Below are positions 14,939-34,848 of a stretch of 64,000 nt of DNA, one piece after another. Below the pieces are notes generated by a model. It ran no database searches. It was not told the origin of the DNA and worked only from the letters and a program-made list of their open reading frames with translations. Origin of the DNA: Escherichia phage B9-1; sequence record OQ420740.1. One strand, written 5' to 3'. Position 1 is the first letter of the stretch, and each line of letters opens with the position of its first letter. The position numbers and the translations under genes are program-made.

Positions 14939-15439
14939 GTGAAAATTAAAATCTTTGCTATTATTTTGAGCGCATTTTTATCGCTGCCTGTTGTTGCAGC
15001 ACCAAAACAAAAAGTATATCACACTTGCAAGCCGTCGGATACTAAGGAAAACATTCTAGCATGCAATATCTACAGGGAGGCTAGAGGGGATGGCACGATG
15101 GGTATGCTGGCATCCGGATTTGCCACACTAAACAGGAAATCTCACCCCAAATACCCAGACACTATAAGAAAGATTGTCTACCAACCTAACCAGTTTTCGT
15201 GGACAAACCACGGCAAAACTTTTAAGGTGACAGAAAAAGATTCATGGGATCACGCTAAAAGTCTTGCAAAGATGCTTCTAAAGGTCTATAATAACAACCA
15301 TGTTGCATACATGGCTATGGATATAACAGGCGGAGCAACACACTACCATACAACAAAAGTACGACCGAAATGGGCAAAAAAGATGCAGAGGACAGCTCAA
15401 TTCGGGAGCCATATCTACTACAAGGAGCGCAATAAATGA
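14939..15439 (+). CDS. Secreted SleB/CwlJ-like cell-wall hydrolase (GTG start)
   Basis: Track ORF 166 aa; N-terminal signal peptide MKIKIFAIILSAFLSLPVVAAP; motifs ILACNIYREARGDG and QPNQFSW typical of Hydrolase_2 family. Confidence 0.65.
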   Translation: MKIKIFAIILSAFLSLPVVAAPKQKVYHTCKPSDTKENILACNIYREARGDGTMGMLASGFATLNRKSHPKYPDTIRKIVYQPNQFSWTNHGKTFKVTEKDSWDHAKSLAKMLLKVYNNNHVAYMAMDITGGATHYHTTKVRPKWAKKMQRTAQFGSHIYYKERNK

Positions 15440-17418
15440 TTGTAAACAGCAATGAAACTAAAGCGGTGCTAACTGGGAATATGGAGGTAACCAGGGGATC
15501 AATTTCTCTGAACAAAGAGACTTTTGGGCTAATCATCAAAGGGATTTATGAAGATAAGGTACTGGCAAGCTGCCGTGAACCGATCTTCAATGCTGTGGAC
15601 TCACATGTTGAGTCTGGACGAGGTGATGTACCGATCATCATTCACTCTCCTACAGACCTTGAACCATACTTCTTTGTGCAGGACGTTGGATTAGGCATGT
15701 CAGAAGAGATGGTCCGTAACACTTTCATGAACCTAGGTGAGTCGACCAAGCGCAACAGCAACGCTCTGGTAGGCAATAAAGGTGTTGGTTCAAAGGCCCC
15801 GTTCAGCATGGTGGACACTTTCGATGTAATCAGTGTGCACAACGGTGTGGAAAGCACATACCTATTGTTCTTGGACCAGGGTATCCCAAATGTCACCAAG
15901 ATCCGTGAGCGGAAGACTGAAGAGCACAACGGGGTAAAAGTTCAGTTTCATGTTAAGAAAGAGCATGTTCTGAAATATCGCACCGCTATTGCATCATGCC
16001 TGCGCTATGCAAAATTTCCGTTCACTGTCACCGACCCGATGACGAGCAAGATGCTGGAGGGAGACAAAGTAGAGGCGCAGTATTATTATGAAAAAGATGG
16101 TTGGAAGATGACCATCCTGAAGGGTTATACCAGCTCTGACGAGAGTCGTGTGGTAATGGGTCACCAACCTTACCGTTCTAAGTTCCTGGAGACACTAATA
16201 GATTATCCTGCAATTTGTGTAGAGATCCCTATCGGAGATTGCAATATTAACCCAGGGCGTGAATGGACCATAGAAGGTCACGACGATGGTGGATTCCAAG
16301 AGCGTTTGGAAGCTTTTGTCAAAGAAGGCATTCGCCTTCGTGGAGCAGAAGTTGTTGCAGAACTGGAGACAGCAAAAACATCCTCAGAAGCACGCGAGAT
16401 GATGAAGAACAGTGGAGTGTTCGGGCACATCTTCGGTAAGAATTTTATGTATGACCGCTGGGAAGAAACAGGGCTAGGAAATTTGGGGGACTGCGAGATC
16501 TTCGCTGGCGGCTTAAATAAAGGCCGCATAGGTTACGCCTGCTACGGAAAGGTAGAATTCTTACGGGGAGTTTATTTAGTATTTAACGACGGAGACGGCA
16601 AATATAACCGGAATAAGTGTAACTACTTAAGCGAGATTACCGGACGCAACGTTTTCTATTGCCGTAACACGGATCTGGTGAAAGAGTTTAAAGAGGCGGC
16701 ACACCATCCGTTTTTTGCAGATACGGTCAAATTGTTATCGGAGCTTCCACGCCGACCTACGAAGAAAGGTGAAACCAAAACCCGTTACGAACCAGGCTAT
16801 TGGGTTAAAAAACTTGAGAAGGATGGTTACTTCCGGCGTGAGCGTATTACTAAGGCAGAGTTCAGGAAGATTAAGCACTGCATACCGTATGAGGGGGATA
16901 TCCAACGCGGAAGTTGTTGGCTAGGGCAGATGAGCAACATCTACCAGCAAGATTATGACCGTGTGCGTTCGGCACTCCAGATTCCTGAAGGGGAAGATCT
17001 GTACCTGGTGTCGGAATCTCGTCTGCTTTGGACTGATCCTGATTGCCAATATGTTACAGAGAAGAATGTGGAACATTTGTTGAAAGAGGATGCTTGGAAA
17101 TTCTTACTAACTCGCGCAGCAAATGAAACTTCATATGACAGCCTGTACAGACAGTTAGGTAAAATTATCCCCATGCAGGATTTTGGAAGTTATCGGCCAC
17201 ATTTCCACAAGTGGGAAGGTAGCACCACGTGGAAGTACGGTGAGCTAAATCATCGTGCCAAAATCTTAATCGCCAACCGGGTTAAGTGCGGGAAGGCCTA
17301 TATTGCAAGATTGGAAAAGAAATATCCACTTTTGAAGCATGTAGGCTTGAAATATTGGGACACTCCTGCTATGATTGAATACCGTGAACTGATTGATACA
17401 AAGAATAACATCAAATAA
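15436..17418 (+). CDS. GHKL-family ATPase domain protein, possibly rIIA-like
   Basis: Track ORF 660 aa; N-box EPIFNAVDS, G1 box VQDVGLGM, G2 box GNKGVGSKA; rIIA assignment is inference from domain type and size. Confidence 0.6.
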   Translation: MIVNSNETKAVLTGNMEVTRGSISLNKETFGLIIKGIYEDKVLASCREPIFNAVDSHVESGRGDVPIIIHSPTDLEPYFFVQDVGLGMSEEMVRNTFMNLGESTKRNSNALVGNKGVGSKAPFSMVDTFDVISVHNGVESTYLLFLDQGIPNVTKIRERKTEEHNGVKVQFHVKKEHVLKYRTAIASCLRYAKFPFTVTDPMTSKMLEGDKVEAQYYYEKDGWKMTILKGYTSSDESRVVMGHQPYRSKFLETLIDYPAICVEIPIGDCNINPGREWTIEGHDDGGFQERLEAFVKEGIRLRGAEVVAELETAKTSSEAREMMKNSGVFGHIFGKNFMYDRWEETGLGNLGDCEIFAGGLNKGRIGYACYGKVEFLRGVYLVFNDGDGKYNRNKCNYLSEITGRNVFYCRNTDLVKEFKEAAHHPFFADTVKLLSELPRRPTKKGETKTRYEPGYWVKKLEKDGYFRRERITKAEFRKIKHCIPYEGDIQRGSCWLGQMSNIYQQDYDRVRSALQIPEGEDLYLVSESRLLWTDPDCQYVTEKNVEHLLKEDAWKFLLTRAANETSYDSLYRQLGKIIPMQDFGSYRPHFHKWEGSTTWKYGELNHRAKILIANRVKCGKAYIARLEKKYPLLKHVGLKYWDTPAMIEYRELIDTKNNIK

Positions 17419-20403: not shown

Positions 20404-21747
20404 ATGAGTAAAACCAAATTAGAACTTACCTGGATAGGTAAGAACGAGCGCAAAAAGCTAGAGCCTCACATTTTGCGAGAAGATTCGAGCAAGTCTTATC
20501 ACGCCAGTAAAAAGGTGACCGAAAACGATATTTTTGATAATAAACTGATTTTTGGAGATAACTTACTGGCATTGAAGGCACTAGAGCAAGAGTATGCAGG
20601 CAAAGTGAAGTGTGTTTACATAGACCCGCCATTTAATACCGGAAGGGATTTTGAGCACTACGATGATAGCCTGGAGCACTCCATTTGGCTGGGCTTAATG
20701 CGGGACAGATTAGAAATAATTCGTAATCTGCTAAGCGATGATGGAGTGATATTCGTTCACTTAGATGACTGCGAAATGGCTTATTTAAAAGTCTTGATGG
20801 ACGAGATTTTTGGTCGTGCAAATCAGTTAAATACCATATCGATGACTACAAATTGCCCTTCAGGCTTTAAGGCAACAGGAACTACAGTTTTCTCCACAGC
20901 AAACTTTTTGCTTGTATATGCAAAAGATCGTACCAAGAAACCACTTAACAAAATCTATATACCTAAAGAGTATGATACGGGATATAACAAATATCTATTA
21001 AACCCAGATGACCATTATAAAAGTTGGACGTGGTGCGGTATTGCCGATGCGTTTGCAAAGGCCAATGGCTATAAAGATACAAAAGAAGCCAAGAAAAAAC
21101 TGCCTGATACATTTGATGATGAATTAGCACAATTTGCAATTGATAATGCAGAACGTGTATTTCAATCCGTTGCAATTGGCGGTGGTGCCAAAATAAAGAG
21201 AAAAGAAACTATCGAGAAGTCAAAGAAAGATAGGGATAAGGTTTATGTACATCCAAATGAGGATGTCGAAGGCTTTTATATCGCAAATGGTAGGCAAATG
21301 GTCTTTTATTCCAATAGGCTTTTGGAAATTGACGGTGAGATGCAGCCTGCTGAACTAATAACTGATGTTTGGACTGACATTAGTTGGAATGGAATAGCAA
21401 ATGAAGGGGGCGTTAGTTTCAAAAATGGAAAAAAACCTGAAGCGCTTTTGAAGCGGATTTTAAAAATGTGTACGCGAGAAGGAGATTTAGTATTGGATTC
21501 ATTCGGCGGTTCGGGGACTACTGCTGCTGTAGCTCACAAGATGAAAAGACGTTGGATCTCTGTTGAGCTAGGAGATCATTGTCATACCCATATTATTCCA
21601 CGCTTGCAAAAAGTGATCGATGGTGAAGATCAAAGTGGTATTTCTAAATCTGTAAACTGGCAAGGTGGTGGGGGCTTTCGTTATTACAAACTTGCCCAGA
21701 ACTTAGTTGTGAAAGATAAGCTTGACTCAGAAGAAGATTTAGAGTAA
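20404..21747 (+). CDS. DNA N6-adenine/N4-cytosine methyltransferase (beta-class)
   Basis: Track ORF 447 aa; motif IV DPPF then motif I LDSFGGSGTT; N-terminal LELTWIGK. Confidence 0.85.
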   Translation: MSKTKLELTWIGKNERKKLEPHILREDSSKSYHASKKVTENDIFDNKLIFGDNLLALKALEQEYAGKVKCVYIDPPFNTGRDFEHYDDSLEHSIWLGLMRDRLEIIRNLLSDDGVIFVHLDDCEMAYLKVLMDEIFGRANQLNTISMTTNCPSGFKATGTTVFSTANFLLVYAKDRTKKPLNKIYIPKEYDTGYNKYLLNPDDHYKSWTWCGIADAFAKANGYKDTKEAKKKLPDTFDDELAQFAIDNAERVFQSVAIGGGAKIKRKETIEKSKKDRDKVYVHPNEDVEGFYIANGRQMVFYSNRLLEIDGEMQPAELITDVWTDISWNGIANEGGVSFKNGKKPEALLKRILKMCTREGDLVLDSFGGSGTTAAVAHKMKRRWISVELGDHCHTHIIPRLQKVIDGEDQSGISKSVNWQGGGGFRYYKLAQNLVVKDKLDSEEDLE

Positions 21748-23005: not shown

Positions 23006-23032
23006 GCCCTGCCCGAAAGGGTGGGGCTTTTT
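23006..23032 (+). terminator. Intrinsic terminator (hairpin with G.U pairs, GAAA loop)
   Basis: GCCCTGCCC-gaaa-GGGTGGGGC then TTTTT; identical hairpin recurs at 33152. Confidence 0.7.
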
Positions 23033-23050
23033 GCATTAGGAGACAGCAAA

Positions 23051-23815
23051 TTGAAATTTATCTACAAAGAACACTACCACAAAGGTGTTGTGTGGAGTCT
23101 ATTTGACGGGTCTGGTGGTGCAGTTATTGACTGGGCAAAAGCTGGATATCTGTGCCTGTGCTTTAACGCAGAAGGTGCTGACCATGGCAGTTATGCAGAG
23201 GTGATAACCGATCATCCCAACATTCACTACGTGGATTATTGGATTGACCCGTGGTTCCCTCAAGAAACTTTTTGCATGTACCCAGCTCCAGACTTTATTC
23301 TTGCATTTCCTCCGTGCACGCATTTAGCAGTATCAGGTGCTGCACATTTTAAGAAAAAGCTGGCTAAGGACCCTCTGATTCAAATTAATGCTGTAAAAGA
23401 TGCTCGGGTTGCAGAAGAGTTGGGAGAGATTTACGATTGCCCGTGGCATGTAGAGAATCCTGTGGGAGTTATGTCCACACTGTGGCGAAAACCTGATTAC
23501 CGTTTTCATCCTTCAGATTATGGCGGGTATTTACCGGAGGATGATGTAAACCCCTGGTTTCCTGAATTTATAGCTCCACGGGATGCCTACCCAAAAATAA
23601 CTTGCGGTTGGATAGGCAATGGATTTATAATCCCCGCCACAAAACCTGTCCCGCAAATAGTTGATGTGGTTAGTGGTTATTCCATGCAACACGCTAAGCT
23701 AGGTGGAAAGAGTGCAAGGACGAAGATGATTCGAAGCCTTACACCACGTGGCTGGGCAAGAGCTGTATTCTTAGCAAACGAGCCTGCAGTAAGGAGAAGA
23801 ATTAATGGGCAGTAA
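23051..23815 (+). CDS. Putative C5-cytosine methyltransferase-like protein (TTG start)
   Basis: Track ORF 23021..23815 begins inside the terminator hairpin; TTG 23051 follows RBS AGGAGA; motifs SLFDGSGG (motif I), AFPPC (PC motif), VENPVG (ENV motif). Confidence 0.5.
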   Translation: MKFIYKEHYHKGVVWSLFDGSGGAVIDWAKAGYLCLCFNAEGADHGSYAEVITDHPNIHYVDYWIDPWFPQETFCMYPAPDFILAFPPCTHLAVSGAAHFKKKLAKDPLIQINAVKDARVAEELGEIYDCPWHVENPVGVMSTLWRKPDYRFHPSDYGGYLPEDDVNPWFPEFIAPRDAYPKITCGWIGNGFIIPATKPVPQIVDVVSGYSMQHAKLGGKSARTKMIRSLTPRGWARAVFLANEPAVRRRINGQ

Positions 23816-25883
23816 ATTCATGGCATCTGCATACAACCGTTTCGGTGAGCCAAACCCGAAAGCAACTAAGTATAAAAGTGGGGGAAGTGTGAAACGAGAC
23901 TATCGTGATGAAAAAGAAGTTGAAACTGTAGAGACTGTTTTAGAAAATACTAAAATTGTCCCTGTTCCACAACAAAATATTGGACTGATGGCTGCACAAT
24001 ATTTTGGTGTACGATCATCGCTATCCCAAGAGGATGGTGTAACTGTTACTGCCACCTACTTTCCGTATTACGACCGCTACGGTAATCTATCTGGCTTTAA
24101 AAAGCGTGACTGGACAATCCCTAAAGAGCAAAGGGGCCATTTCTCGGTTGTCGGCATAGTAAAGGCCAACTCCCAGATGTTTGGTCAAAAGCTGTGTGCA
24201 TCCTCCAACAACCGCAAGCAGATTAACGTTTGTGAGGGGGAAGGGGATGTTATTGCAGCGTGGCAGGCTGCATATCAGGTACAAGTAAAAGGAATTCTCA
24301 CCAATGCTAAAGCCCCAGCGAAGGTGAAGCAGTGGGCTAAAGAAGTCCAGGATGGGATCGATGCAGTTATCAACGGCGGCGATCTTGCAGGAAAACCATG
24401 CCTGCCTTTTGTTGGAATTAACTGCGGGTGTGCAAACGCAGTAGACACTTTTGCGAACAATGAGAAATTTATCCGTAGCTACGGAACAGTAGTCCTTGCA
24501 ATGGACAACGATGCAGCTAACGAGGTAGAGAAGCAAAAACACGTTATCAAAGGTGTTGAAGCTACGCATAATATCGCAGCATTTTTGATGGCTGACAACG
24601 TTTACCACGTGGAATACCCAGGTGAGGTAAACGACCCTGATGGTGTAAAAGATATTCGTGACATGCTGAAGGCTAAAAAGCTGGAAGATATTGTCAACAT
24701 GTTCCGTCACCCAGTCAAATATGTGCCTGATGCTGTATCTGATTTAGAAGACTTCTCCATTGAATCTCTTCGTAAGAAGACTTCCAATGGCGTGGATATT
24801 AGTGCAGAGTTCCCTAAACTGCAGAAGATGCTGAAAGGACTCCACAAAGGCACCTTGATGATGCTGACAGGCCCGTCTGGCGGTGGTAAAACAACTGTAG
24901 CCAAGAAGCTGGAACATTGCATTGCAAGATACTTGATGGATCCAACATGCCCTAAAGCTGATGATTATGAAGAGGATGATCGCCTGTGCCTGATTCACCT
25001 TGAAGAGGATCCTGAGGAAGCAATCAACTCTCTGTACGCTAACCAGCTGGGGTTTGATGTTAAAGAGTTTGTTGAAGACCCCAGTCAGTTCCTGACCGAT
25101 CAGGAGCACGCTGAGATTCATCAATCTTGGGCCAAGGCCGGAAAAATCAAAGTGTTCAAGCATTTCGGCTCCATCCCTGTAGATGAGCTGATCACTAAGC
25201 TTAAACAAATGGTGTGCCTGTATCACTGCCGTTACATTGTGCTGGATCACTTGTCTATGGTGATTTCAGGGCTTAATGTTAAGGATGAGCGTAAAGAGCT
25301 TGACATGGCTATGACTCAACTAGCCGCGTTCTGTAAGCAGTTTAATGTGTTTATCTTGGTGATTGCTCACCTGAAGCGCACAGAGATTGTACCTCCGAAG
25401 GATAAGGATGGAAATCCGTTACCTTTCTGGTACCCTGTACGAAAAGAGAACCTTCGCGGTAGTGCCGGATTGGAGCAACTTAGCTGGGTGGTTGTCGGGG
25501 TAGAGGCAGAGGAGATGGTGGATCGTTCCCGTGGACGTGTCCGACTGGTAGGTCTTAAAAACCGCCCAGCAAAAACCTTAGGTATTGCGGACACTCTAGT
25601 TATGGATCCTCACACAGGCAAGTTCCATGATGCCAGCAACTGGTACTGGGACAAAGAAATGCAGATGTTTACAGACGGGGAAGGTGGGGAGGTTGTTTGG
25701 AGACCTCAGGCTATGTTTGAGGATCAGGAGCATGCAGTTGTAGAAACACCTGTGGGCAAGGTTGTGGCTGATAAGGTTGTAACTCCTACTGTTAACCCTG
25801 TTGACACACAGGAAGACCTTCAGTATGATGATCCGTCCTCTAACCACGTTCCGGGTTTTGAAGACGACGAAACACCTTTTTAA
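23805..25883 (+). CDS. Primase-helicase (Toprim primase domain + DnaB/gp4-like helicase)
   Basis: Track ORF 692 aa; Toprim VCEGEGDVIA and VVLAMDNDAAN; Walker A LTGPSGGGKTT. Confidence 0.85.
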   Translation: MGSKFMASAYNRFGEPNPKATKYKSGGSVKRDYRDEKEVETVETVLENTKIVPVPQQNIGLMAAQYFGVRSSLSQEDGVTVTATYFPYYDRYGNLSGFKKRDWTIPKEQRGHFSVVGIVKANSQMFGQKLCASSNNRKQINVCEGEGDVIAAWQAAYQVQVKGILTNAKAPAKVKQWAKEVQDGIDAVINGGDLAGKPCLPFVGINCGCANAVDTFANNEKFIRSYGTVVLAMDNDAANEVEKQKHVIKGVEATHNIAAFLMADNVYHVEYPGEVNDPDGVKDIRDMLKAKKLEDIVNMFRHPVKYVPDAVSDLEDFSIESLRKKTSNGVDISAEFPKLQKMLKGLHKGTLMMLTGPSGGGKTTVAKKLEHCIARYLMDPTCPKADDYEEDDRLCLIHLEEDPEEAINSLYANQLGFDVKEFVEDPSQFLTDQEHAEIHQSWAKAGKIKVFKHFGSIPVDELITKLKQMVCLYHCRYIVLDHLSMVISGLNVKDERKELDMAMTQLAAFCKQFNVFILVIAHLKRTEIVPPKDKDGNPLPFWYPVRKENLRGSAGLEQLSWVVVGVEAEEMVDRSRGRVRLVGLKNRPAKTLGIADTLVMDPHTGKFHDASNWYWDKEMQMFTDGEGGEVVWRPQAMFEDQEHAVVETPVGKVVADKVVTPTVNPVDTQEDLQYDDPSSNHVPGFEDDETPF

Positions 25884-25941: not shown

Positions 25942-28719
25942 ATGAGCATGTGGTCGTTCGATTTTGAGGCCTCTGGCCTGCTGGAAGACCCAGATCTTTA
26001 TTATCACTGCGGTTTGTTTAAAGAGCTGAATAAGAACCGTTTTATGCTGTTCCTTCCTCTAAATGACCGCACACACTACTCTGAAGAGGATGTGGAGAAA
26101 GCTAAGAACTTCATTCTGGCAAAGAAGACCCTTTATACAGATTTTGATGTTCGCATAGCAGATTTTTCAGAGTTGGAGGGTTGGCTTACAGGTAACTCAG
26201 ACTGGTCACCTACAGCTTTGAACTGTCATAACTGCTACAGCTACGACTTTATGCTAATGGAGAGATTATCCGGTATTCATTTTGATATGTTCCGTGATCC
26301 TAAATGCATGGGGACTATCAACGACCACCAGGTTAATCTGTTCGATACGTTAGCAATGAGTCGAATCTTGTGGCCTGACCGCCCTTTGCCAAAAGGTTGT
26401 CCGGACGCAGTATTTAATCCAGTTACCAAGAAAATGCAGCCTGTTGGGCCTCATGGCCTTATGGCATGGGGCTATGCCCTTGGTAACCAGAAAGTTCAAA
26501 TCGATGACTGGCGTGAGCTTCCGCTGTGGAAGTATGTGGATCGTGTGTTCGAGGACGTTATCATTCAGGAGTTGCTCTGGAAGGAGTTGGTAGCTGAATC
26601 AAAAGGTGTATTCTACGGCAAATCTGACATGCAGAACTTTATGTACGATCCTGCCAAAGAGAAGCCGAAAGGCTTCAAGAAGATCACCTGGAAGAACGCA
26701 TTACGCCGAGGCATGTTACAGCACTTCCTGATGGAGCTGCAGGCTCGACAGGGGGTGTATTTCGACATAGATGGGGCTATTGCTCTACGTGACCGTTGCG
26801 ATGCGTGGATGAAAGAGATCGCTGATCGTGTTGAACCACAACTCCCTTTAAAAGAGCTATCAATGTCTCAACGGCCTAAGTTTCCTGAAAAGCCGTTTAA
26901 CCAGGATGGGACAATCTCCAATAATGGTTGGAAATGGTTAAAAGACAAGCTTGGCTACCCTGTGGACATGAGTGCTTTAGAGTTCAAAGCTCCTCCTAAG
27001 CGAGCATTTACCTCCACAGGGGATGTAAGTAAGATGGGGATAAAATGGTGTGAAGAGATGGGCTGTAAAGACCCCGATAAGATGGCTGATTTCTTGAGGG
27101 GGTATATCAAAGGAACTTCTACACCACACCCTTTACCTAAAGAGCTGATGGATCAGGCGATAAGTGACCTACAGCAGAAGCGAATGCCTGACTGCAAGAT
27201 ACCTATGAAAATCAGCAATCAGGACGACATCAAGCGATACCTGATCAGTGCTGGTTGGCTCCCAACAATGTGGAGAACTAAGGATGTAACTAAGGACAGC
27301 AAGAAGAAAGCTTTACCTGATGCAGATGTTGATGCACGAGTATATGCATATATGGACGAGCTTTTGGAGTCAGAGTATTGTGACCTAATTATCAACTTCT
27401 GGAACAAAACTGATGCTAAGTTCCAGACAACTGTACATAAGTTCAGAAGCTTCCCTAACTCTGAAAGAATTAAAAAGGAAGTGTTCGGGAAAATACGTAG
27501 AAAAGCCAGAGCGCTTATTACTTCTCCGCAACTGAAAGATACGTTTGGACACCTATGTCCGAATCTTGAAAAATTGAACGGAGAGATGGCTAAAGATATC
27601 GTTTTGTGGTTATCATTGCGAAACCGCAGATCGGTCCTTGATCCAATCAAGGAAGATAAGGTCGATACTGGTCTTCTTAATCATCCACGTTTGAAGATTG
27701 ACCACAAGCTTCCTGCTAAAAGTTCTGGATTAACAAACACTTCCAGACAGAAACATAGTATTTGTGCAAACATGCCTAAACCATCTCCTAAAGTGGTTAT
27801 GGGTAAAGAGATGCGTAGTCTGTGGGGTGTTCCTCCGGGATACTTTGAGATCGGTATTGACGGGTCCAACTTAGAGCAGCTCATCGGGGCCTGGGGTGCC
27901 TTTGAGTTTGACAACGGTCTGTATTATGATGTTGTAAGTAACGGGGACGCGCACCAAAACAATGCTGAGGCATATACAAAAGTAGCAGGTAGAGAGGTGT
28001 CTCGTAACGATGGTAAACCTATCACGTATGGGGTTATGTATGGGGCACAAAAAGATAAAGTTGCAGATATGCTGGATATCTCTCCAGAACTGGGGCAGAG
28101 AGTAATTGATGCTCTCTGGGATGCCAACCCAGGTCTTAAGGGGCGCAAAGAGGATCTGGAGAAATTCTGGGAAGCAACAGGTAAGAAATTTATCTACTCT
28201 TTTGACGGGCATGCCATTTGGACCCGCTCTAAACACTCTTTGCTTAATGCATATCAGCAAAATGGCGGTGCATCGTTGTGCGACTTGGTCGGAATCCTCA
28301 TGCACCACCAAATGGTGAAGCGTGGATGGTATGATGAAGGTGTTCGTCGTATTATTTATTACCATGACGAATATCAGCTTCAAGTGCCTGACACCCCTAA
28401 GTATAAAACTGTATACACCTTCGACACAATTGAAGAGCTGGAAACATTTAAAGCCCAACAAGAGGCTAAACTTCATGTGTTCGACGGTCATAAGTACAAA
28501 AAGGCACGCAAAGATGAGGACGGAAACGAAGTGGTTGACAAGGACGGAAATACGGTATACGATCCTATCTTGAACGATGACGGAAAGCTTGAACTTATCT
28601 GGAGCCCTGTGGGCGAAATGGTGGTGCATTGCTTCTGGCAGGCTTCTAAAATGATGGGCGTTCCGTTCCAGATCACAGGTGAATACTTGTGCGGTCGTAA
28701 CTGGGGCGATTGTCACTAA
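25942..28719 (+). CDS. Family A DNA polymerase
   Basis: Track ORF 925 aa; exo-like FDFEASGL; motif A GIDGSNLEQL; motif B GKPITYGVMYG; motif C YYHDEYQLQV. Confidence 0.9.
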   Translation: MSMWSFDFEASGLLEDPDLYYHCGLFKELNKNRFMLFLPLNDRTHYSEEDVEKAKNFILAKKTLYTDFDVRIADFSELEGWLTGNSDWSPTALNCHNCYSYDFMLMERLSGIHFDMFRDPKCMGTINDHQVNLFDTLAMSRILWPDRPLPKGCPDAVFNPVTKKMQPVGPHGLMAWGYALGNQKVQIDDWRELPLWKYVDRVFEDVIIQELLWKELVAESKGVFYGKSDMQNFMYDPAKEKPKGFKKITWKNALRRGMLQHFLMELQARQGVYFDIDGAIALRDRCDAWMKEIADRVEPQLPLKELSMSQRPKFPEKPFNQDGTISNNGWKWLKDKLGYPVDMSALEFKAPPKRAFTSTGDVSKMGIKWCEEMGCKDPDKMADFLRGYIKGTSTPHPLPKELMDQAISDLQQKRMPDCKIPMKISNQDDIKRYLISAGWLPTMWRTKDVTKDSKKKALPDADVDARVYAYMDELLESEYCDLIINFWNKTDAKFQTTVHKFRSFPNSERIKKEVFGKIRRKARALITSPQLKDTFGHLCPNLEKLNGEMAKDIVLWLSLRNRRSVLDPIKEDKVDTGLLNHPRLKIDHKLPAKSSGLTNTSRQKHSICANMPKPSPKVVMGKEMRSLWGVPPGYFEIGIDGSNLEQLIGAWGAFEFDNGLYYDVVSNGDAHQNNAEAYTKVAGREVSRNDGKPITYGVMYGAQKDKVADMLDISPELGQRVIDALWDANPGLKGRKEDLEKFWEATGKKFIYSFDGHAIWTRSKHSLLNAYQQNGGASLCDLVGILMHHQMVKRGWYDEGVRRIIYYHDEYQLQVPDTPKYKTVYTFDTIEELETFKAQQEAKLHVFDGHKYKKARKDEDGNEVVDKDGNTVYDPILNDDGKLELIWSPVGEMVVHCFWQASKMMGVPFQITGEYLCGRNWGDCH

Positions 28720-28770
28720 TGTAAACTATCAACACACGGAAGTGTTGTTAGACAAAGAGAGGAGACTTTT

Positions 28771-29055
28771 ATGGTAGTAGAACCAACAAAAACATTTACC
28801 TCCATGACTATCCCTGTCATTATGCAGGTAGAGTGCGTTCAGGTGTCCCAAGTGTGGCCCGGTACTAAAATTCCAACAGGGCCCGATTTCTTTCAGGTCG
28901 GCAAAGTGTATAATGTCTGGAAGGCACCGGATTGTTATCCTTTCATCAAAGATGACCGTGGGATGCTGTGGTATCTTGGAAATGATTTGACACTGCATCT
29001 TGGAAATGCTATTATTGCAGTGTTCCGGCTCAACAAGAAGGAGACAGATCAATGA
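28771..29055 (+). CDS. Small protein, GKVY/WY paralogue family (94 aa)
   Basis: Track ORF; FFQVGKVYNVW...DDRGMLWYL shared with next two genes. Confidence 0.55.
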   Translation: MVVEPTKTFTSMTIPVIMQVECVQVSQVWPGTKIPTGPDFFQVGKVYNVWKAPDCYPFIKDDRGMLWYLGNDLTLHLGNAIIAVFRLNKKETDQ

Positions 29056-29279
29056 CAACTTTGGTTAAAGCTACATTTGTAGAAGAAAAGATGACAGACC
29101 TGTCATTCTTTGAAGAAGGTAAGGTCTACAAGGTTTATTACGATAAGGATCGCAGGAACAATATGATCGAAGACGAGGACGGTATCTCCTGGTATATCTC
29201 CCATCTGGCAAATGGTGAGTATCATATCTATGGGACCACCCTACTTGCCAAGTTTGTAGTTGTTGAAGAGGATCTATGA
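29052..29279 (+). CDS. Small protein, GKVY/WY paralogue family (75 aa)
   Basis: Track ORF; FFEEGKVYKVY...DEDGISWYI. Confidence 0.55.
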   Translation: MTTLVKATFVEEKMTDLSFFEEGKVYKVYYDKDRRNNMIEDEDGISWYISHLANGEYHIYGTTLLAKFVVVEEDL

Positions 29280-29470
29280 AAGTAAAGTATCTGGCTGAAG
29301 GTATGAGTAGGTATTTTACCCTTGGGGAAGAGTATTGGCCCTTCACGGAAAATGGAGATGTATACGTGAAGGATGACCAAGGTGTGCCGTGGTTTCTGCA
29401 CCATAATGGGTTGGGATATTCCATCTACTGCGGTGCGGTGAACAACACAACCCTTGCAGAGTTTGTATAG
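29276..29470 (+). CDS. Small protein, GKVY/WY paralogue family (64 aa)
   Basis: Track ORF; YFTLGEEYWPF...DDQGVPWFL. Confidence 0.5.
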   Translation: MKVKYLAEGMSRYFTLGEEYWPFTENGDVYVKDDQGVPWFLHHNGLGYSIYCGAVNNTTLAEFV

Positions 29471-29480
29471 AGGAGGTAGA

Positions 29481-29852
29481 ATGTTAGTAAAAGGTACCCA
29501 CACAGTCAAGCAACGTATTGAAGTTGAGATTGATGACTGCGAGCTGAAGCATATTTTACAGTCATGCTCCAACGTTTTGCTCCTCAGTATTCTCCAGGAG
29601 CGAGCGGAGAACGAGTTCTTAAATGCACTGGCAGGCCGCCCCGGTGACTTCTGTGTGCGTAAGCGTGGTGACAACAAGTCATGGTTGTGGGAAATCGATG
29701 CCGACTGGGATTACCACAAAAATGAGGGTATAGATGAGCCTATTCGTGAATTGACAGACAAAGAGATTCAGATGTACAATGAAGTTTGTCATTGGGCAAA
29801 ACGCCAACAAATTTACCTCGACCCTGTGTGGCTGATTGAAAATAGCCATTGA
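29481..29852 (+). CDS. Hypothetical protein (~123 aa)
   Basis: Track ORF 29454..29852; ATG 29481 after RBS GAGGAGG preferred. Confidence 0.55.
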   Translation: MLVKGTHTVKQRIEVEIDDCELKHILQSCSNVLLLSILQERAENEFLNALAGRPGDFCVRKRGDNKSWLWEIDADWDYHKNEGIDEPIRELTDKEIQMYNEVCHWAKRQQIYLDPVWLIENSH

Positions 29853-29927
29853 CAAGAAGTAAGATTAGATATAAGATGCTTCACACAAACAGAGCGTTGA
29901 TTTCAAATAATTAAGGAGACCTCCAAG

Positions 29928-30182
29928 ATGAAAATCACTTTGAAGCCAGAATGCGTTGCAAATGACCGAGCTTTTAAAGATTGCACAGTCGGTGCAATTT
30001 ATGAAGCAGAGTTTTGTGAGAATCCCCTGGTAAAAGCCCTTCTGGAAGAAGGGACCTATTTATCACAAGAAGAGCTAGATGAGTTGGAAAACTCAGCCCA
30101 GTGTCTTACCTTTAAAGATGATGAAGGAGATTCTGTCTGGTGCACTGTTAACGAAGTAGTTTTTGTAAAACCTGAGCATTAA
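29928..30182 (+). CDS. Small Cys-containing protein, paralogue of 30246..30506 (84 aa)
   Basis: Track ORF; KPECVANDRAFKDCT...DDEGDSVWCT. Confidence 0.55.
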   Translation: MKITLKPECVANDRAFKDCTVGAIYEAEFCENPLVKALLEEGTYLSQEELDELENSAQCLTFKDDEGDSVWCTVNEVVFVKPEH

Positions 30183-30185
30183 TAC

Positions 30186-30222
30186 TTGACAATAGCGATA
30201 GGGCCTAATATAATGGCCCTAT
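30186..30222 (+). promoter_or_regulatory. sigma70-type promoter whose -10 is embedded in a perfect palindrome
   Basis: -35 TTGACA 30186-30191, 17-bp spacer, -10 TATAAT 30209-30214; palindrome ATAGGGCC-taatataat-GGCCCTAT 30198-30222. Confidence 0.6.
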
Positions 30223-30245
30223 CAAAACGAAAGGGTACCACAGCA

Positions 30246-30506
30246 ATGACCAAACAATATCAACGAATTAAAGCCAAGGTTAAGCCAGACTATCTGGAGA
30301 AGGACTCTGCTTTTCGGGACTGCACGGCAGATAAAGTTTACACAGGTTCCGTTCTGTTAAACGACGAATTTGAAGTGGATGTTCTTGGTAAAGAGGCCGT
30401 TATCGAAGATGACAACGGGGACTGTGTTTTCTGCACCACCCGTGAGCTGGAAGTCTTAGAATACTTCGGTGAAATCTTCAACTCATTAGATGACGAGGAA
30501 GCGTGA
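30246..30506 (+). CDS. Small Cys-containing protein, paralogue of 29928..30182 (~86 aa)
   Basis: Track ORF 30186..30506 starts on the promoter -35; ATG 30246 preferred; KPDYLEKDSAFRDCT...DDNGDCVFCT. Confidence 0.55.
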   Translation: MTKQYQRIKAKVKPDYLEKDSAFRDCTADKVYTGSVLLNDEFEVDVLGKEAVIEDDNGDCVFCTTRELEVLEYFGEIFNSLDDEEA

Positions 30507-30907
30507 TGAAAAACATTTGGGATATTAATATCTTTGAAGCCTCGGAGCTTGACGGTGCCGATGGGGTTATTATAGTTTCTGATGGGAAGGCAACATTGAC
30601 CTCTGGACTGACCTATGAGGACACTACCTACGCATTGGGCGATCTTGCCTTGTTGAAATCCACAGGTGACTCTCTGGAAGAACGTCTGCAAGGATTTGCC
30701 TTTAAAGAAGGCACAAGCACCACACTAATGTGCACTACACGCACTGTTCAGTTGGGCAACGGGGTCTATATGGTCATTGCAGTGTGCCCCAAATTCAGCA
30801 ACATCAATAAAGATGATGCTGACGCTGTCAACGACGTGGTTGTCCTCTTCGTTGGTGACGCTATGGCAGATCTGATGAATGCAGGAGAAGCAGCAAATGA
30901 AGACTGA
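30503..30907 (+). CDS. Hypothetical protein (134 aa)
   Basis: Track ORF; ATGA overlap. Confidence 0.55.
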   Translation: MMKNIWDINIFEASELDGADGVIIVSDGKATLTSGLTYEDTTYALGDLALLKSTGDSLEERLQGFAFKEGTSTTLMCTTRTVQLGNGVYMVIAVCPKFSNINKDDADAVNDVVVLFVGDAMADLMNAGEAANED

Positions 30908-31199
30908 AAACATCAACCCAACAGGATTCTTGAAAGTATACCGTGAACTGCTGTATACTACAGAAGATAGTGTTCTAGAGTATCCAGAATATCTTTTGCT
31001 GTATAAGTATCTACAGGAAGCTGGTGAAAATCTACCAGTTAGTGCAGAAGGCGGTCCGAACTGGATATACAGCGCATGGAGAAAGGTTGACATTCTCCCA
31101 GATCCAGGAAAAGATATGGTAGTTTGGCAGCTTATCAACAACATCGGGATTCCAATCTTTGATGAGGCTGTTAAAATCTATTTTGAACTTGACGATTAA
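30897..31199 (+). CDS. Hypothetical protein (~100 aa)
   Basis: Track ORF 30879..31199; ATG 30897 after RBS AGGAGA preferred. Confidence 0.5.
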   Translation: MKTENINPTGFLKVYRELLYTTEDSVLEYPEYLLLYKYLQEAGENLPVSAEGGPNWIYSAWRKVDILPDPGKDMVVWQLINNIGIPIFDEAVKIYFELDD

Positions 31200-31216
31200 T
31201 ATCAGGAGACCTTAAG

Positions 31217-31462
31217 ATGGCTGAAGTAGTTGCTCGCGCAGGACAGAAAGTACGTTGTGTTGAAGTTGGTTTCGGCGGCAAAGGTTGCCAGAACCTGACA
31301 CAAGGTAAGGAATACGCTGTTATTTCTGGTGGTGGCGATAAGAGCATTGTGTTCGATGACCATATTCTGGATGCTGAAAACTTTGAAATAATTGACGATG
31401 ATGGTGATCCAATCACCTGCCTGCTGAACGGGAGTTGGGGTACTTTCGAAGTAATTGGCTAA
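31217..31462 (+). CDS. Small Gly-rich protein (81 aa)
   Basis: Track ORF; RBS AGGAGA; loosely resembles the small paralogue families. Confidence 0.55.
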   Translation: MAEVVARAGQKVRCVEVGFGGKGCQNLTQGKEYAVISGGGDKSIVFDDHILDAENFEIIDDDGDPITCLLNGSWGTFEVIG

Positions 31463-31499
31463 CAAATACCTGTTGTAATTTACAGAAGGAGATGCTAAA

Positions 31500-31910
31500 A
31501 TGGTGTCTCCTTTATGTTGTTCAAATAAAATCGGAGATTCCACAATGGAACAAATGAACGATCAAACGTCGGTTGCGATGAACGGGCAAGAACAACCTCA
31601 AGAATTTTTCTTAGGGTTAAGCAAAGATCAAGTGTCTCTTCTACTAGTGCTTTCTTCTTTCATGGGAAGACTTCAGGAGCTTACACAACAGCCAGAGGCT
31701 GAACAATTATTCCAGGCTCTGCGTGAAGAAGAAAAATATCGCCGTTTGGACTATGCCTTAGGTTGGGTAGCTCAACAACGAGATATGCTGATGGCCCTCT
31801 CTGGGACCACGAGTTTTGCAATGGGCCTGTTGGCTCAAGTTCAGGACAAATTAATTCAAGCAGGGTTTGCACACACGGCAAACACTAACGAAGAACAAGG
31901 AGATAAATAA
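31500..31910 (+). CDS. Hypothetical protein (136 aa)
   Basis: Track ORF; RBS AAGGAGA 7 nt upstream. Confidence 0.55.
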   Translation: MVSPLCCSNKIGDSTMEQMNDQTSVAMNGQEQPQEFFLGLSKDQVSLLLVLSSFMGRLQELTQQPEAEQLFQALREEEKYRRLDYALGWVAQQRDMLMALSGTTSFAMGLLAQVQDKLIQAGFAHTANTNEEQGDK

Positions 31911-33136
31911 TGAGCGTTATTCAACAATTCGCTAACCCGATGAATCCGCGTGAAACTGTTTTACTGGCTCACGGCATGATTAAACGTGTCAGCATCAAGC
32001 CTATCAAAGGTGCTGATCCTACAACAGGTATTAAAACCACTGTGTGGCAAGGTAAGAAAATTGAATCCAGCCACACCATCTCTTTACTGATTTCTGAACT
32101 GGACTCCTCTGATAACCTGCTCCAAGGTGGTGAAGAAGTTTGGATCAGCATGGGTGATAAGCTGCTTAAGCCTGGTCATCAAGACTCCGTCTCTGTTAAA
32201 ATTGATGACAAGTGGGAAACAGTAACGCCAGGATGGATCGTAAATATCCCTTTAAAGGCAAATGAGCATAACGGTAAGACCTACTACAAAGGCTCACTGG
32301 CTAAAATGGTTAAGTTGGGGGCAGGAGAGGCTCCAGCAGCTCCACAGCAACAAAAACAGCAACAAGGCACACAATCACAAGGTCAGAAGCAGAAACCTCA
32401 GCAGAATGCCAATCAGGACGTTTTACGCATCTATGGTGATGTGACTCAGATTGTTGGTAACGTGGTTACTGTCAATGACCACAAGATTGGCGAAGGTGCT
32501 ATGGTTGTCTCTGATGAGCAGCTTAAAGACCTAGTGGTAGGTGGTCGTGTTGCGGCTATTGTTGACAAAGACACCGGGAATATTATCAGCGGTTTTAAAG
32601 CCTACCCGCCCAAGGCAGAGAACGGAACTCAAGGCTCTGGTGGTAAGCGTAAATCTTCTTATGATCCTATCGGTGTAGAAACAGGACATAGCATCAATGC
32701 GTTGCAAATCATCCTGGATCGCGGGTTTAAGGTAGACAATCCTTTAGACGTGGCTAAAACACTACACGTTGTCACCATTGAGCTTAAGAAAGAGTACGCT
32801 CAAGCTACCAACCGAACTGAAGATGAAGTAGGTGCCAGTGTTGGTAATGCGGTATTGAACGCTTGTCGCCGTATTGACAAGAAAACGAAAGTTGACGATT
32901 TTGCAGTAGCAATTACTGCAGAGGCAAAAGATGTCTTGACTAATCTTGCTGAACCGTTGTATGATTGGATCAAGAACGGTGCGGGAGCCACTGACCATCA
33001 AGAACCTCAAGCTGCCAAACAGGAAGCTGCTCCACAGCAAAACACTGTAGACGCTCCTCCTGTAGATAATGATGAAGATGACCCTATGGATCAGAATCCG
33101 GCACAGTACGCCTTTGATGATGACATTCCTTTTTAA
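31910..33136 (+). CDS. ssb: Single-stranded DNA-binding protein-like, with E. coli SSB-type acidic C-terminal tip
   Basis: Track ORF 408 aa; Q/P-rich linker; C-terminus YAFDDDIPF matches the bacterial SSB tip; OB fold not verifiable by eye. Confidence 0.7.
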   Translation: MSVIQQFANPMNPRETVLLAHGMIKRVSIKPIKGADPTTGIKTTVWQGKKIESSHTISLLISELDSSDNLLQGGEEVWISMGDKLLKPGHQDSVSVKIDDKWETVTPGWIVNIPLKANEHNGKTYYKGSLAKMVKLGAGEAPAAPQQQKQQQGTQSQGQKQKPQQNANQDVLRIYGDVTQIVGNVVTVNDHKIGEGAMVVSDEQLKDLVVGGRVAAIVDKDTGNIISGFKAYPPKAENGTQGSGGKRKSSYDPIGVETGHSINALQIILDRGFKVDNPLDVAKTLHVVTIELKKEYAQATNRTEDEVGASVGNAVLNACRRIDKKTKVDDFAVAITAEAKDVLTNLAEPLYDWIKNGAGATDHQEPQAAKQEAAPQQNTVDAPPVDNDEDDPMDQNPAQYAFDDDIPF

Positions 33137-33151
33137 CATCTAGTTAACATG

Positions 33152-33179
33152 GCCCTGCCCGAAAGGGTGGGGCATTTTT
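33152..33179 (+). terminator. Intrinsic terminator, same hairpin as at 23006
   Basis: GCCCTGCCC-gaaa-GGGTGGGGC then ATTTTT. Confidence 0.7.
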
Positions 33180-33198
33180 GTATATAGAGGACTGAAAA

Positions 33199-33615
33199 AT
33201 GACATTAGAAGATATCATTGTTAAACCTGAGAACTATGACCAATACAATCTATCAACTCAATCTGTGGATCTTGGATGCGCCACTGTCAGTGCGTGGCTG
33301 GTTAACGGAAAAGAGCTGGATAAATGCTTAGAAGCTCACATGACTGTGAACAAGTTCCTTGATGAAAATACTCACTGGCTGGAAGGTGCAGGTGTATACG
33401 CTTCGTGGCTAGAGAGTATGGGATTTGACTACCAATCTGAAGAGGGGTGGTGGAGCTATCTGGCTATCTGTCCAGAGACGTTGCAATGCTTCATGAAATA
33501 TTCTGAAGATTTGGAGTACCGGGCGGTGGTTGACAGTGCTATTGCCCGTTATAGCCGCAAACCTTTTTCCCATGACATTAAAACTGTGGAAGAATTTGTT
33601 GAAGTTTTCTGTTGA
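33199..33615 (+). CDS. Hypothetical protein (138 aa)
   Basis: Track ORF; RBS AGAGGA. Confidence 0.6.
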   Translation: MTLEDIIVKPENYDQYNLSTQSVDLGCATVSAWLVNGKELDKCLEAHMTVNKFLDENTHWLEGAGVYASWLESMGFDYQSEEGWWSYLAICPETLQCFMKYSEDLEYRAVVDSAIARYSRKPFSHDIKTVEEFVEVFC

Positions 33616-33974: not shown

Positions 33975-34400
33975 ATGATTTATGAAATGCCAAAACTGAT
34001 TCGTGACGATGCACGAAACGCCCACACCTTTATTATGGGCAAGCGCATGGATATTATTTGTCACAAAGACTTCTGGGAAGGGAGCTACTTCACAGAATAT
34101 TTTGGAAAAATGGATGATGGCCTACTGATCCAGTTTTACACCGATGCGGAAAACAACATTAGTTGGGAGTTCGAGACCGAAGATGTCCATAAACTTTTCA
34201 CCTTCCTCGACATTAAGGTTAAGGCCAAGTTTGAAGAAGGTGAGTGCGACGATTGTGGATTTTATGAGGTAACGGATTTCTATCTTCCGAGCGGTAAAAA
34301 CCTTTACTATGAAAGCCACTTCGGTAACTCCAATATGCCACAGTGCTGGACTGAGTTTTTTGAAATTGTGGAAGAGGAGCTGGAATATCGTGATTATTGA
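33975..34400 (+). CDS. Hypothetical protein (141 aa)
   Basis: Track ORF. Confidence 0.55.
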   Translation: MIYEMPKLIRDDARNAHTFIMGKRMDIICHKDFWEGSYFTEYFGKMDDGLLIQFYTDAENNISWEFETEDVHKLFTFLDIKVKAKFEEGECDDCGFYEVTDFYLPSGKNLYYESHFGNSNMPQCWTEFFEIVEEELEYRDY

Positions 34401-34848
34401 TACTGTAGAGGGAGATTTAATCTCCCTTTTTAAGAGCGGTGCTGGTCACCTGATCCACGGTTGTAACTGCTTCCACACAATGGGGAAGGGTGTAGCAAAG
34501 CAGATTGCTCGTGAATTCCCTCAAGCATTGGAAGCTGATAAAATGACTATGCACGGTTGCCTAAGTAAACTGGGCGCGTTCTCCCGCTGGGAGCACTTAT
34601 CTCCGAGAGGTATTGTCTACGGAATAAATCTGTATACTCAGTTCTACCCAGGGCCTAATGCTGAATATTTCTCAATACTGAAAGGATTTGAGCGAGTCAA
34701 TGAAGTATTTGAGGGGTCGATTTTACCATTCTACATCCCTAAGATCGGGTGCGGCATAGGCGGTTTGAAGTGGGAACATGTAGAGGACATTATTAACCTT
34801 GCCACTTTTGATATAGATATTATCGTGGTGGAGTACAAAGAGTGTTGA
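34390..34848 (+). CDS. Macrodomain protein (ADP-ribose binding/processing fold); start uncertain
   Basis: Track ORF 34309..34848; GTG 34390 after GAGGAG proposed; motifs HGCNCFHTMGKGVAKQI and later IGCGIGG fit macrodomain signatures. Confidence 0.6.
   Translation: MIIDTVEGDLISLFKSGAGHLIHGCNCFHTMGKGVAKQIAREFPQALEADKMTMHGCLSKLGAFSRWEHLSPRGIVYGINLYTQFYPGPNAEYFSILKGFERVNEVFEGSILPFYIPKIGCGIGGLKWEHVEDIINLATFDIDIIVVEYKEC

Follow-up and report, generated by a model that had tools for sequence, protein, structure and literature searches.

The DNA analysed here is a 64,000-nt window of Escherichia phage B9-1 (OQ420740.1), and all positions given below are positions in that window. It belongs to a Vequintavirus (an rV5-like E. 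coli myovirus), with 98% nucleotide identity to S127 BCL3 and more than 100 close relatives. In this region, some 20 records named 'Campylobacter phage' (e.g., MG065674 and MG065655, host C. jejuni) share 96-98% identity with E. coli rV5-like phages, and their host labels look doubtful. On the plus strand, the coding sequence at 31910..33136 starts with ATG, overlaps the preceding ORF by one base and encodes an SSB-like protein of 408 amino acids plus a stop codon, the orthologue of Bas52_0087 (PHROG 4477). Directly after the gene, on the same strand, there is a strong terminator-like hairpin (33152..33173) with a 9-bp stem (7 G-C) and a T-run, the whole element covering 33152..33183.

The protein ends in ...DDPMDQNPAQYAFDDDIPF (in short, ...QYAFDDDIPF), and its final seven residues, FDDDIPF (aa 402-408; 33113..33133, plus strand), are the same as the C-terminus of E. 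coli SSB, as present in PDB chain 1eqq_A (...SNEPPMDFDDDIPF). The first-pass annotation had described an ORF ending in the exact E. coli SSB tip after a Q/P-rich linker, and this description holds: 7 of 7 residues are identical, a six-frame scan found the tip only once in the 64-kb window, and the linker is real, with 13 Q+P and a net charge of -9 in aa 357-400. A second Q-rich linker lies at aa 139-170, with 16 Q+P among its 32 residues. The length, previously put at about twice that of bacterial SSB, is 408 aa vs. 178 aa for E. coli SSB (2.3x), and is explained by the two extra folded domains of the AlphaFold2 model. The feature is genuine and non-random, and it makes biological sense.

Among the PHROGs, phrog_4477 (of 'unknown function') was matched over aa 1-408 with E=2e-172, and this PHROG 4477/Bas52_0087 family spans Vequintavirinae and Stephanstirmvirinae. 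With the family profile, an exhaustive HMMER search of 1.84 billion representatives revealed a small family of about 250 clusters at 50% identity, whose members come in a long (370-420 aa) or a short (260-300 aa) form. A Pfam scan of the 408-aa protein gave no match, and none of 129 diverse members matched a Pfam SSB family (PF00436 in 0/129) or PF10991 (DUF2815). When PDB sequences were searched by single-protein phmmer and with the family profile, only the bacterial SSB tail was returned, and the NCBIfam SSB models matched only the last 40-80 residues, far under their cut-offs (for TIGR00621, 12.9 bits vs. a cut-off of 53.95, in the tail only). As sequence assignment failed everywhere except in the tail, the 'SSB' labels that depositors gave to a few relatives appear to be tail-based. 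A relation to T7 gp2.5 was rejected at the sequence level (hhalign probability 0.2%). The protein belongs to a distinct, Pfam-less phage SSB-like family, outside the bacterial SSB family.

Residues P407 and F408 are invariant in 27 relatives. Of the 129 distant members, 98 have x-P-F at the C-terminus, the exact DDDIPF is seen in 28, and most of the others finish with an aromatic residue after an acidic stretch; the tip is the best conserved part across these members, followed by the helical bundle and then by the N-terminal domain, while the middle barrel is present in about a third of them (occupancy 0.31). Given this invariance and the family-wide conservation, the tip is, judged by sequence comparison, not a product of chance. 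The phAPEC8-like short forms (about 295 aa, without the middle barrel; ESCO5 locus L003 4596..5483, L018 and L021) end in EPPMDFDDDIPF, which means that their twelve terminal residues are identical to those of E. coli SSB, and such an identity suggests a transfer of tail-coding DNA rather than convergence.

The AlphaFold2 model of the 408-aa protein, built on 27 homologues, contains three confident domains with disordered linkers between them and a disordered tail after them. The all-beta, OB-like N-terminal domain (aa 1-138; 31910..32323), a putative ssDNA-binding domain, is followed by the disordered Q/P-rich linker (aa 139-170; 32324..32419; pLDDT <50) and by a small second beta barrel of IF1/S1-like type (aa 171-232; 32420..32605), which is not present in the short (260-300 aa) family members and which Foldseek matched to IF1 over 68 columns with prob 1.0. 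After a short linker comes a four-helix bundle (aa 251-356; 32660..32977; pLDDT 87-96), the best-conserved folded domain, and then the acidic Pro/Gln-rich tail (aa 357-401; 32978..33112), which is disordered; all these parts lie on the plus strand. In the model itself, the bundle spans aa 253-355 and the disordered tail aa 359-408.

An OB-like N-terminal domain was modelled; the matches to known structures are weak and Foldseek against the PDB gave no significant structural match. The weak PDB matches were OB folds (TEBP-alpha, D. radiodurans SSB, DUF2815/gp2.5-like proteins, RPA and IF1), and for a gp2.5-type fold the scores were E=0.049 (4klk) and E=0.23 (4jg2); generic OB matches scored equally well or better. 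In BFVD, the significant matches were uncharacterised members of the same family, followed by weak matches to viral SSBs and to a DUF2815 protein (E=5e-3, prob 0.99). Because the Foldseek and BFVD matches to OB proteins are weak, we consider the predicted OB assignment reasonable and of moderate confidence, and it agrees with the independent Phold/AF2 analysis in a recent preprint (bioRxiv 10.64898/2026.04.29.721553).

Two other functions could be imagined for such a fold. It seems highly improbable that the beta domains do not bind nucleic acid at all and that the protein is a scaffold which uses the tip in some other way: the fold scores are modest, OB or SH3-like barrels serve many functions and the N-terminal domain has a low net positive charge, but OB-fold ssDNA binders dominate the structure-match lists (with modest scores), and the genomic context, the tail architecture and the independent Phold annotation agree with one another. 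It is likewise unlikely, to a lesser degree, that the protein is primarily a mediator of single-strand annealing or recombination, by gp2.5-like annealing or with a RecO-like combination of OB and helical domains. Such a role would be compatible with that of an SSB, yet the RecO matches span just 76-96 residues, which is consistent with the OB domain alone, and there is no sequence relation to gp2.5.

The gene lies in a replication module with the order rIIA/rIIB, PIF1/RecD-like helicase, DNA methyltransferases, primase-helicase, family-A polymerase, small ORFs, SSB-like gene and hairpin. The DnaB-like (T7-type) primase-helicase is encoded at 23805..25883 and the family-A DNA polymerase at 25942..28719, both on the plus strand, and the SSB-like gene is downstream of both, as it is in Bas52; the order of polymerase and then SSB-like gene is kept in Stephanstirmvirinae and metagenomic relatives. 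The HATPase-domain ORF at 15436..17418 was considered as topoisomerase-like and rejected, because in the curated BASEL annotation it is rIIA, with rIIB next to it. The methyltransferase ORFs at 20404..21747 and 23021..23815 comprise an N6/N4 DNA methylase (PF01555 match) and a Dcm-like C5-cytosine methyltransferase named so by the depositors (no Pfam match), and the annotation of other parts of the genome has more methyltransferases. Downstream of the SSB-like gene, at a distance of about 1.2 kb, positions 34309..34848 code for a Macro-domain protein (PF01661, E=2e-7). Between the polymerase and SSB-like genes, strong sigma-70-like promoter matches are clustered at 28987..30214, among them a perfect TTGACA-17-TATAAT at 30186..30214; the promoter scan of 28600..33400 gave 13 sites vs. 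7.8 expected.

The rV5 genome paper lists a ligase, a polymerase and two helicases, and no SSB. In the curated BASEL genome of Bas48, where the orthologue is annotated as 'hypothetical protein', the stretches 1-82 kb and 100-137.6 kb contain no annotated SSB, and tblastn of E. coli SSB against the window gave no match to its OB domain. Therefore, with no other SSB in the annotation covered (the rV5 paper and these two stretches of Bas48) or by tblastn, the SSB-like protein is the sole visible SSB candidate. We consider that the ORF probably encodes the phage's own replicative ssDNA-binding protein, serving a T7-type replisome made of the primase-helicase and the family-A polymerase. Binding of ssDNA would fall to the N-terminal OB-like domain, perhaps together with the second barrel, as fold and context suggest; the four-helix bundle would mediate self-association or another protein contact, and the disordered acidic tail ending in FDDDIPF may be a docking peptide, given its identity to the host SSB-Ct and the T7 precedent. 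The weak basicity of the N-terminal domain (net +3) counts against the replicative reading.

The primase-helicase of the same phage ends in ...GFEDDETPF* (25854..25880, plus strand), i.e., in an acidic tail with terminal Pro-Phe. All recovered Vequintavirinae primase-helicases end in acidic x-P-F (ETPF, DCPF, DTPF, GSPF or DSPF; L004 1018..3081 and L030-L044), and more distant helicases end in acidic-F, like the DTDF of T7 gp4. In T7, gp2.5 and gp4 have acidic tails with a terminal Phe, and the polymerase is the docking site for both. By analogy, the tail of the SSB-like protein may have a phage partner besides or instead of host partners, and since the primase-helicase has a comparable acidic ...PF ending, tails of this kind probably also find their docking site on the phage polymerase, following the T7 example, which makes the family-A polymerase a candidate partner of both tails. 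The ...ETPF tail thereby complicates the idea of host recruitment, as the T7 parallel would point to a partner in the phage replisome.

Taken to its end, this parallel leads to the proposal that the tail serves the phage replisome only (polymerase and/or helicase, as in T7) and that its identity to the host tip comes from shared ancestry or a transfer of tail DNA. The proposal is compatible with a replicative SSB, and we hold it possible, if on the less probable side. The shared acidic endings of the SSB-like protein and the helicases, near and distant, speak for it, and so does the endonuclease described below, which by inserting at the tip codons could spread tail-coding DNA between genes. 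However, an identity to the host of seven residues here, and of twelve in the phAPEC8-like relatives, exceeds what an acidic-plus-Phe tail would need, the helicase tails (ETPF, DCPF, DTPF) are more diverged, and the orthologue is genetically linked to the ExoI-controlled DRT10 defence.

In EmilHeitz (Bas49), a 638-bp insertion (locus L064 135..772) interrupts the gene precisely at its last codon and stop, a point equivalent to 33131..33136 in the window. It carries a homing-endonuclease gene, and the 5' end of this endonuclease gene, read in the SSB frame, gives the extension APVGLQYGKSRIHAL. In many relatives (rV5, EmilHeitz and cluster P0001) 15 such residues, APIGLQY..., follow the tip, and the tip-buried cluster P0001 alone has 533 member sequences, while in bov10K2 and Bas51 the endonuclease gene comes after an intact stop. 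The tip is terminal in Bas48, Bas51, Bas52 and Bas57. The homing-endonuclease cassette is found in about 52 rV5-like records, and about half of the rV5-like genomes have it at this exact point; further cassette loci are L065 2036..2614 and L070 1347..1787. In other Vequintavirinae, fragments of the cassette's 5' part lie where primase-helicase genes end. In T1-like phages, a related cassette is placed in the same way at the 3' ends of canonical SSB genes, and its endonuclease has the N-terminal Cys-rich module in common; in P22-like g341c the extension alone remains, with an unrelated gene downstream. Since the cassette or its remnants sit at the tip-codon ends of SSB-like, canonical SSB and helicase genes, the tip-coding DNA behaves, as far as these comparisons indicate, like a homing site; natural variants with a buried tip are common. 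The extension was also considered as a functional second motif co-varying in the helicase and the SSB-like protein; this was rejected, because near-identical genomes differ in it and endonuclease insertion explains it.

Most endonuclease-bearing alleles seen, together with the endonuclease-free cluster P0005, have FCDDIPF in place of FDDDIPF (EmilHeitz L064 1..183, P0001), which could reflect immunity of the target site or else a co-conversion tract. Among near-identical genomes of the Klebsiella type, homology ends exactly after the terminal PF codon of the helicase (L036 and L060, from about 3519 onward, vs. L035, L037 and L038); one set of these helicases has the extension APIGLQYAKHAIYVI, while in the other a stop comes next and then an inserted ORF of unrelated sequence (MMIQKRERGGERNLLPVTDL...).

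As structures of its complexes have established, the E. coli SSB-Ct is recognized by ExoI, RecQ, PriA and chi in part through the free carboxylate of its terminal Phe. As 15 residues are added after the tip in the tip-buried phages, canonical tip docking with a free C-terminal Phe would not be strictly essential in them, and these natural relatives also complicate the host-recruitment idea. To hypothesize further, a family of endonuclease genes with a conserved zinc-finger-like N-terminus might move between canonical SSBs, the SSB-like family and primase-helicases, spreading or burying the tip as they go; the x-P-F tail shared by the SSB-like protein and the primase-helicase would be both a T7-style replisome currency and a mimic of the recruitment signal of host SSB. 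We find this doubtful; if it were true, tip-masked variants would differ in their host interactions and in their visibility to defence systems such as DRT10.

The orthologue has already been reported. In a preprint of 30 April 2026 (bioRxiv 10.64898/2026.04.29.721553), mutants of Bas52 escaping the DRT10 (UG17) reverse-transcriptase defence system were isolated, and both escape mutations, D252V and Y351C, were in Bas52_0087, which is needed for DRT10 activation and was called the DRT10 trigger. The authors predicted it by AF2/Phold to be SSB-like, with two OB folds and a disordered C-terminus, noted its FDDDIPF motif resembling the E. coli SSB C-tip, and proposed that it may compete with or displace host SbcB/ExoI, which restrains DRT10; they also suggested oligomerisation in DRT10 sensing. 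In the same study, overexpression of SbcB weakened the DRT10 restriction of Bas52, and Bas52_0087 expressed alone was neither toxic to E. coli nor enough to trigger DRT10 (10.64898/2026.04.29.721553). The window protein is identical to Bas52_0087 (Bas52, MZ501102) in 396 of 408 residues (97%), with twelve substitutions and no gaps. In our model, both escape positions fall into the four-helix bundle, which the text of the preprint does not single out: D252, conserved in 106/129 members, caps helix 1, and Y351, at the end of helix 4, is variable among the 129 members. With both positions in it, the bundle would be the part that matters for DRT10 sensing, via oligomerisation or another contact, and its proposed role in self-association or protein contact is consistent with these escape mutants.

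The first-pass annotation also suggested that the protein may recruit or titrate the host proteins that interact with SSB, and this is plausible, for putative partners, and is the preprint's hypothesis as well. As the phage protein and host SSB end in one and the same tip, ssDNA coated by the phage protein could present the host recruitment signal to partners such as ExoI. ExoI/SbcB restrains DRT10 and is a known SSB-tip partner (10.64898/2026.04.29.721553), and, by indirect genetics, host ExoI may be a relevant partner. It seems very unlikely that the protein is mainly a decoy instead of a replicative SSB, that is, an SSB-tip mimic soaking up host partners, e.g., ExoI or the RecJ/RecQ nucleases. 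Its exact host tip, the proposed competition with or displacement of SbcB and the weaker DRT10 restriction of Bas52 upon SbcB overexpression would suit a decoy, but the protein has two predicted OB-like domains, the synteny of the replication module is conserved across subfamilies, Bas48 has no further annotated SSB candidate in 1-82 and 100-137.6 kb, and natural tip-buried variants are common. In addition, since the orthologue alone is non-toxic and does not trigger DRT10, strong titration of essential host partners is argued against. The replicative reading with a docking tail is the one we prefer.

Because the observation and the host-partner hypothesis were essentially published already, as prediction and genetics for a 97%-identical orthologue, their novelty is low. 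The increments of this study are that the escape positions map to the helical bundle, that the helicase has a matching tail and that a homing endonuclease inserts at the tip codons; these are useful leads rather than discoveries. It is emerging that phage SSBs commonly trigger bacterial immunity, and host genome maintenance has its hub in the SSB tip. A non-canonical scaffold with the exact host tip offers a handle on two questions: whether the phage replisome takes in repair and replication enzymes of the host, and how DRT10-type defences tell phage-coated from host-coated ssDNA. The natural variants, with the tip terminal or buried and with a helicase that has a matching tail, could act as ready-made experiments. 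The DARNA and Hna papers concern SSBs of other phages and provide general context only.

Compared to E. coli SSB (PF00436, TIGR00621), the phage protein has in common the predicted OB-type fold, the disordered low-complexity linker and the FDDDIPF tip, but it shows no sequence homology beyond the tail and has two extra folded domains. The SSBs of P1, P22-like g341c and T1-like ESh4/SCS31 also have DDDIPF-type tips, some with the same endonuclease-derived extension, although these are canonical bacterial-type SSBs of 150-170 aa by annotation and N-terminal sequence; for example, the N-terminus of g341c, MASRGVNKVI..., resembles E. coli SSB. With the T7 gp2.5/gp4/gp5 system, phage B9-1 shares a (here probable) SSB with an acidic, Phe-ended tail, a primase-helicase with a similar tail and a family-A polymerase, and there is a weak structural resemblance to DUF2815 proteins (PF10991), the group of gp2.5. 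Unlike gp2.5, to which it has no sequence relation, the phage B9-1 protein has a tip of the host-SSB type (DDDIPF vs. DGDF) and extra barrel and helical domains. Finally, Bas52_0087 (QXV84166.1, phage RudolfGeigy/Bas52) has the same gene position, FDDDIPF tip, D252 and Y351 as the window protein, and what our model additionally resolves, compared to the preprint, is the conserved four-helix bundle that contains both escape positions.
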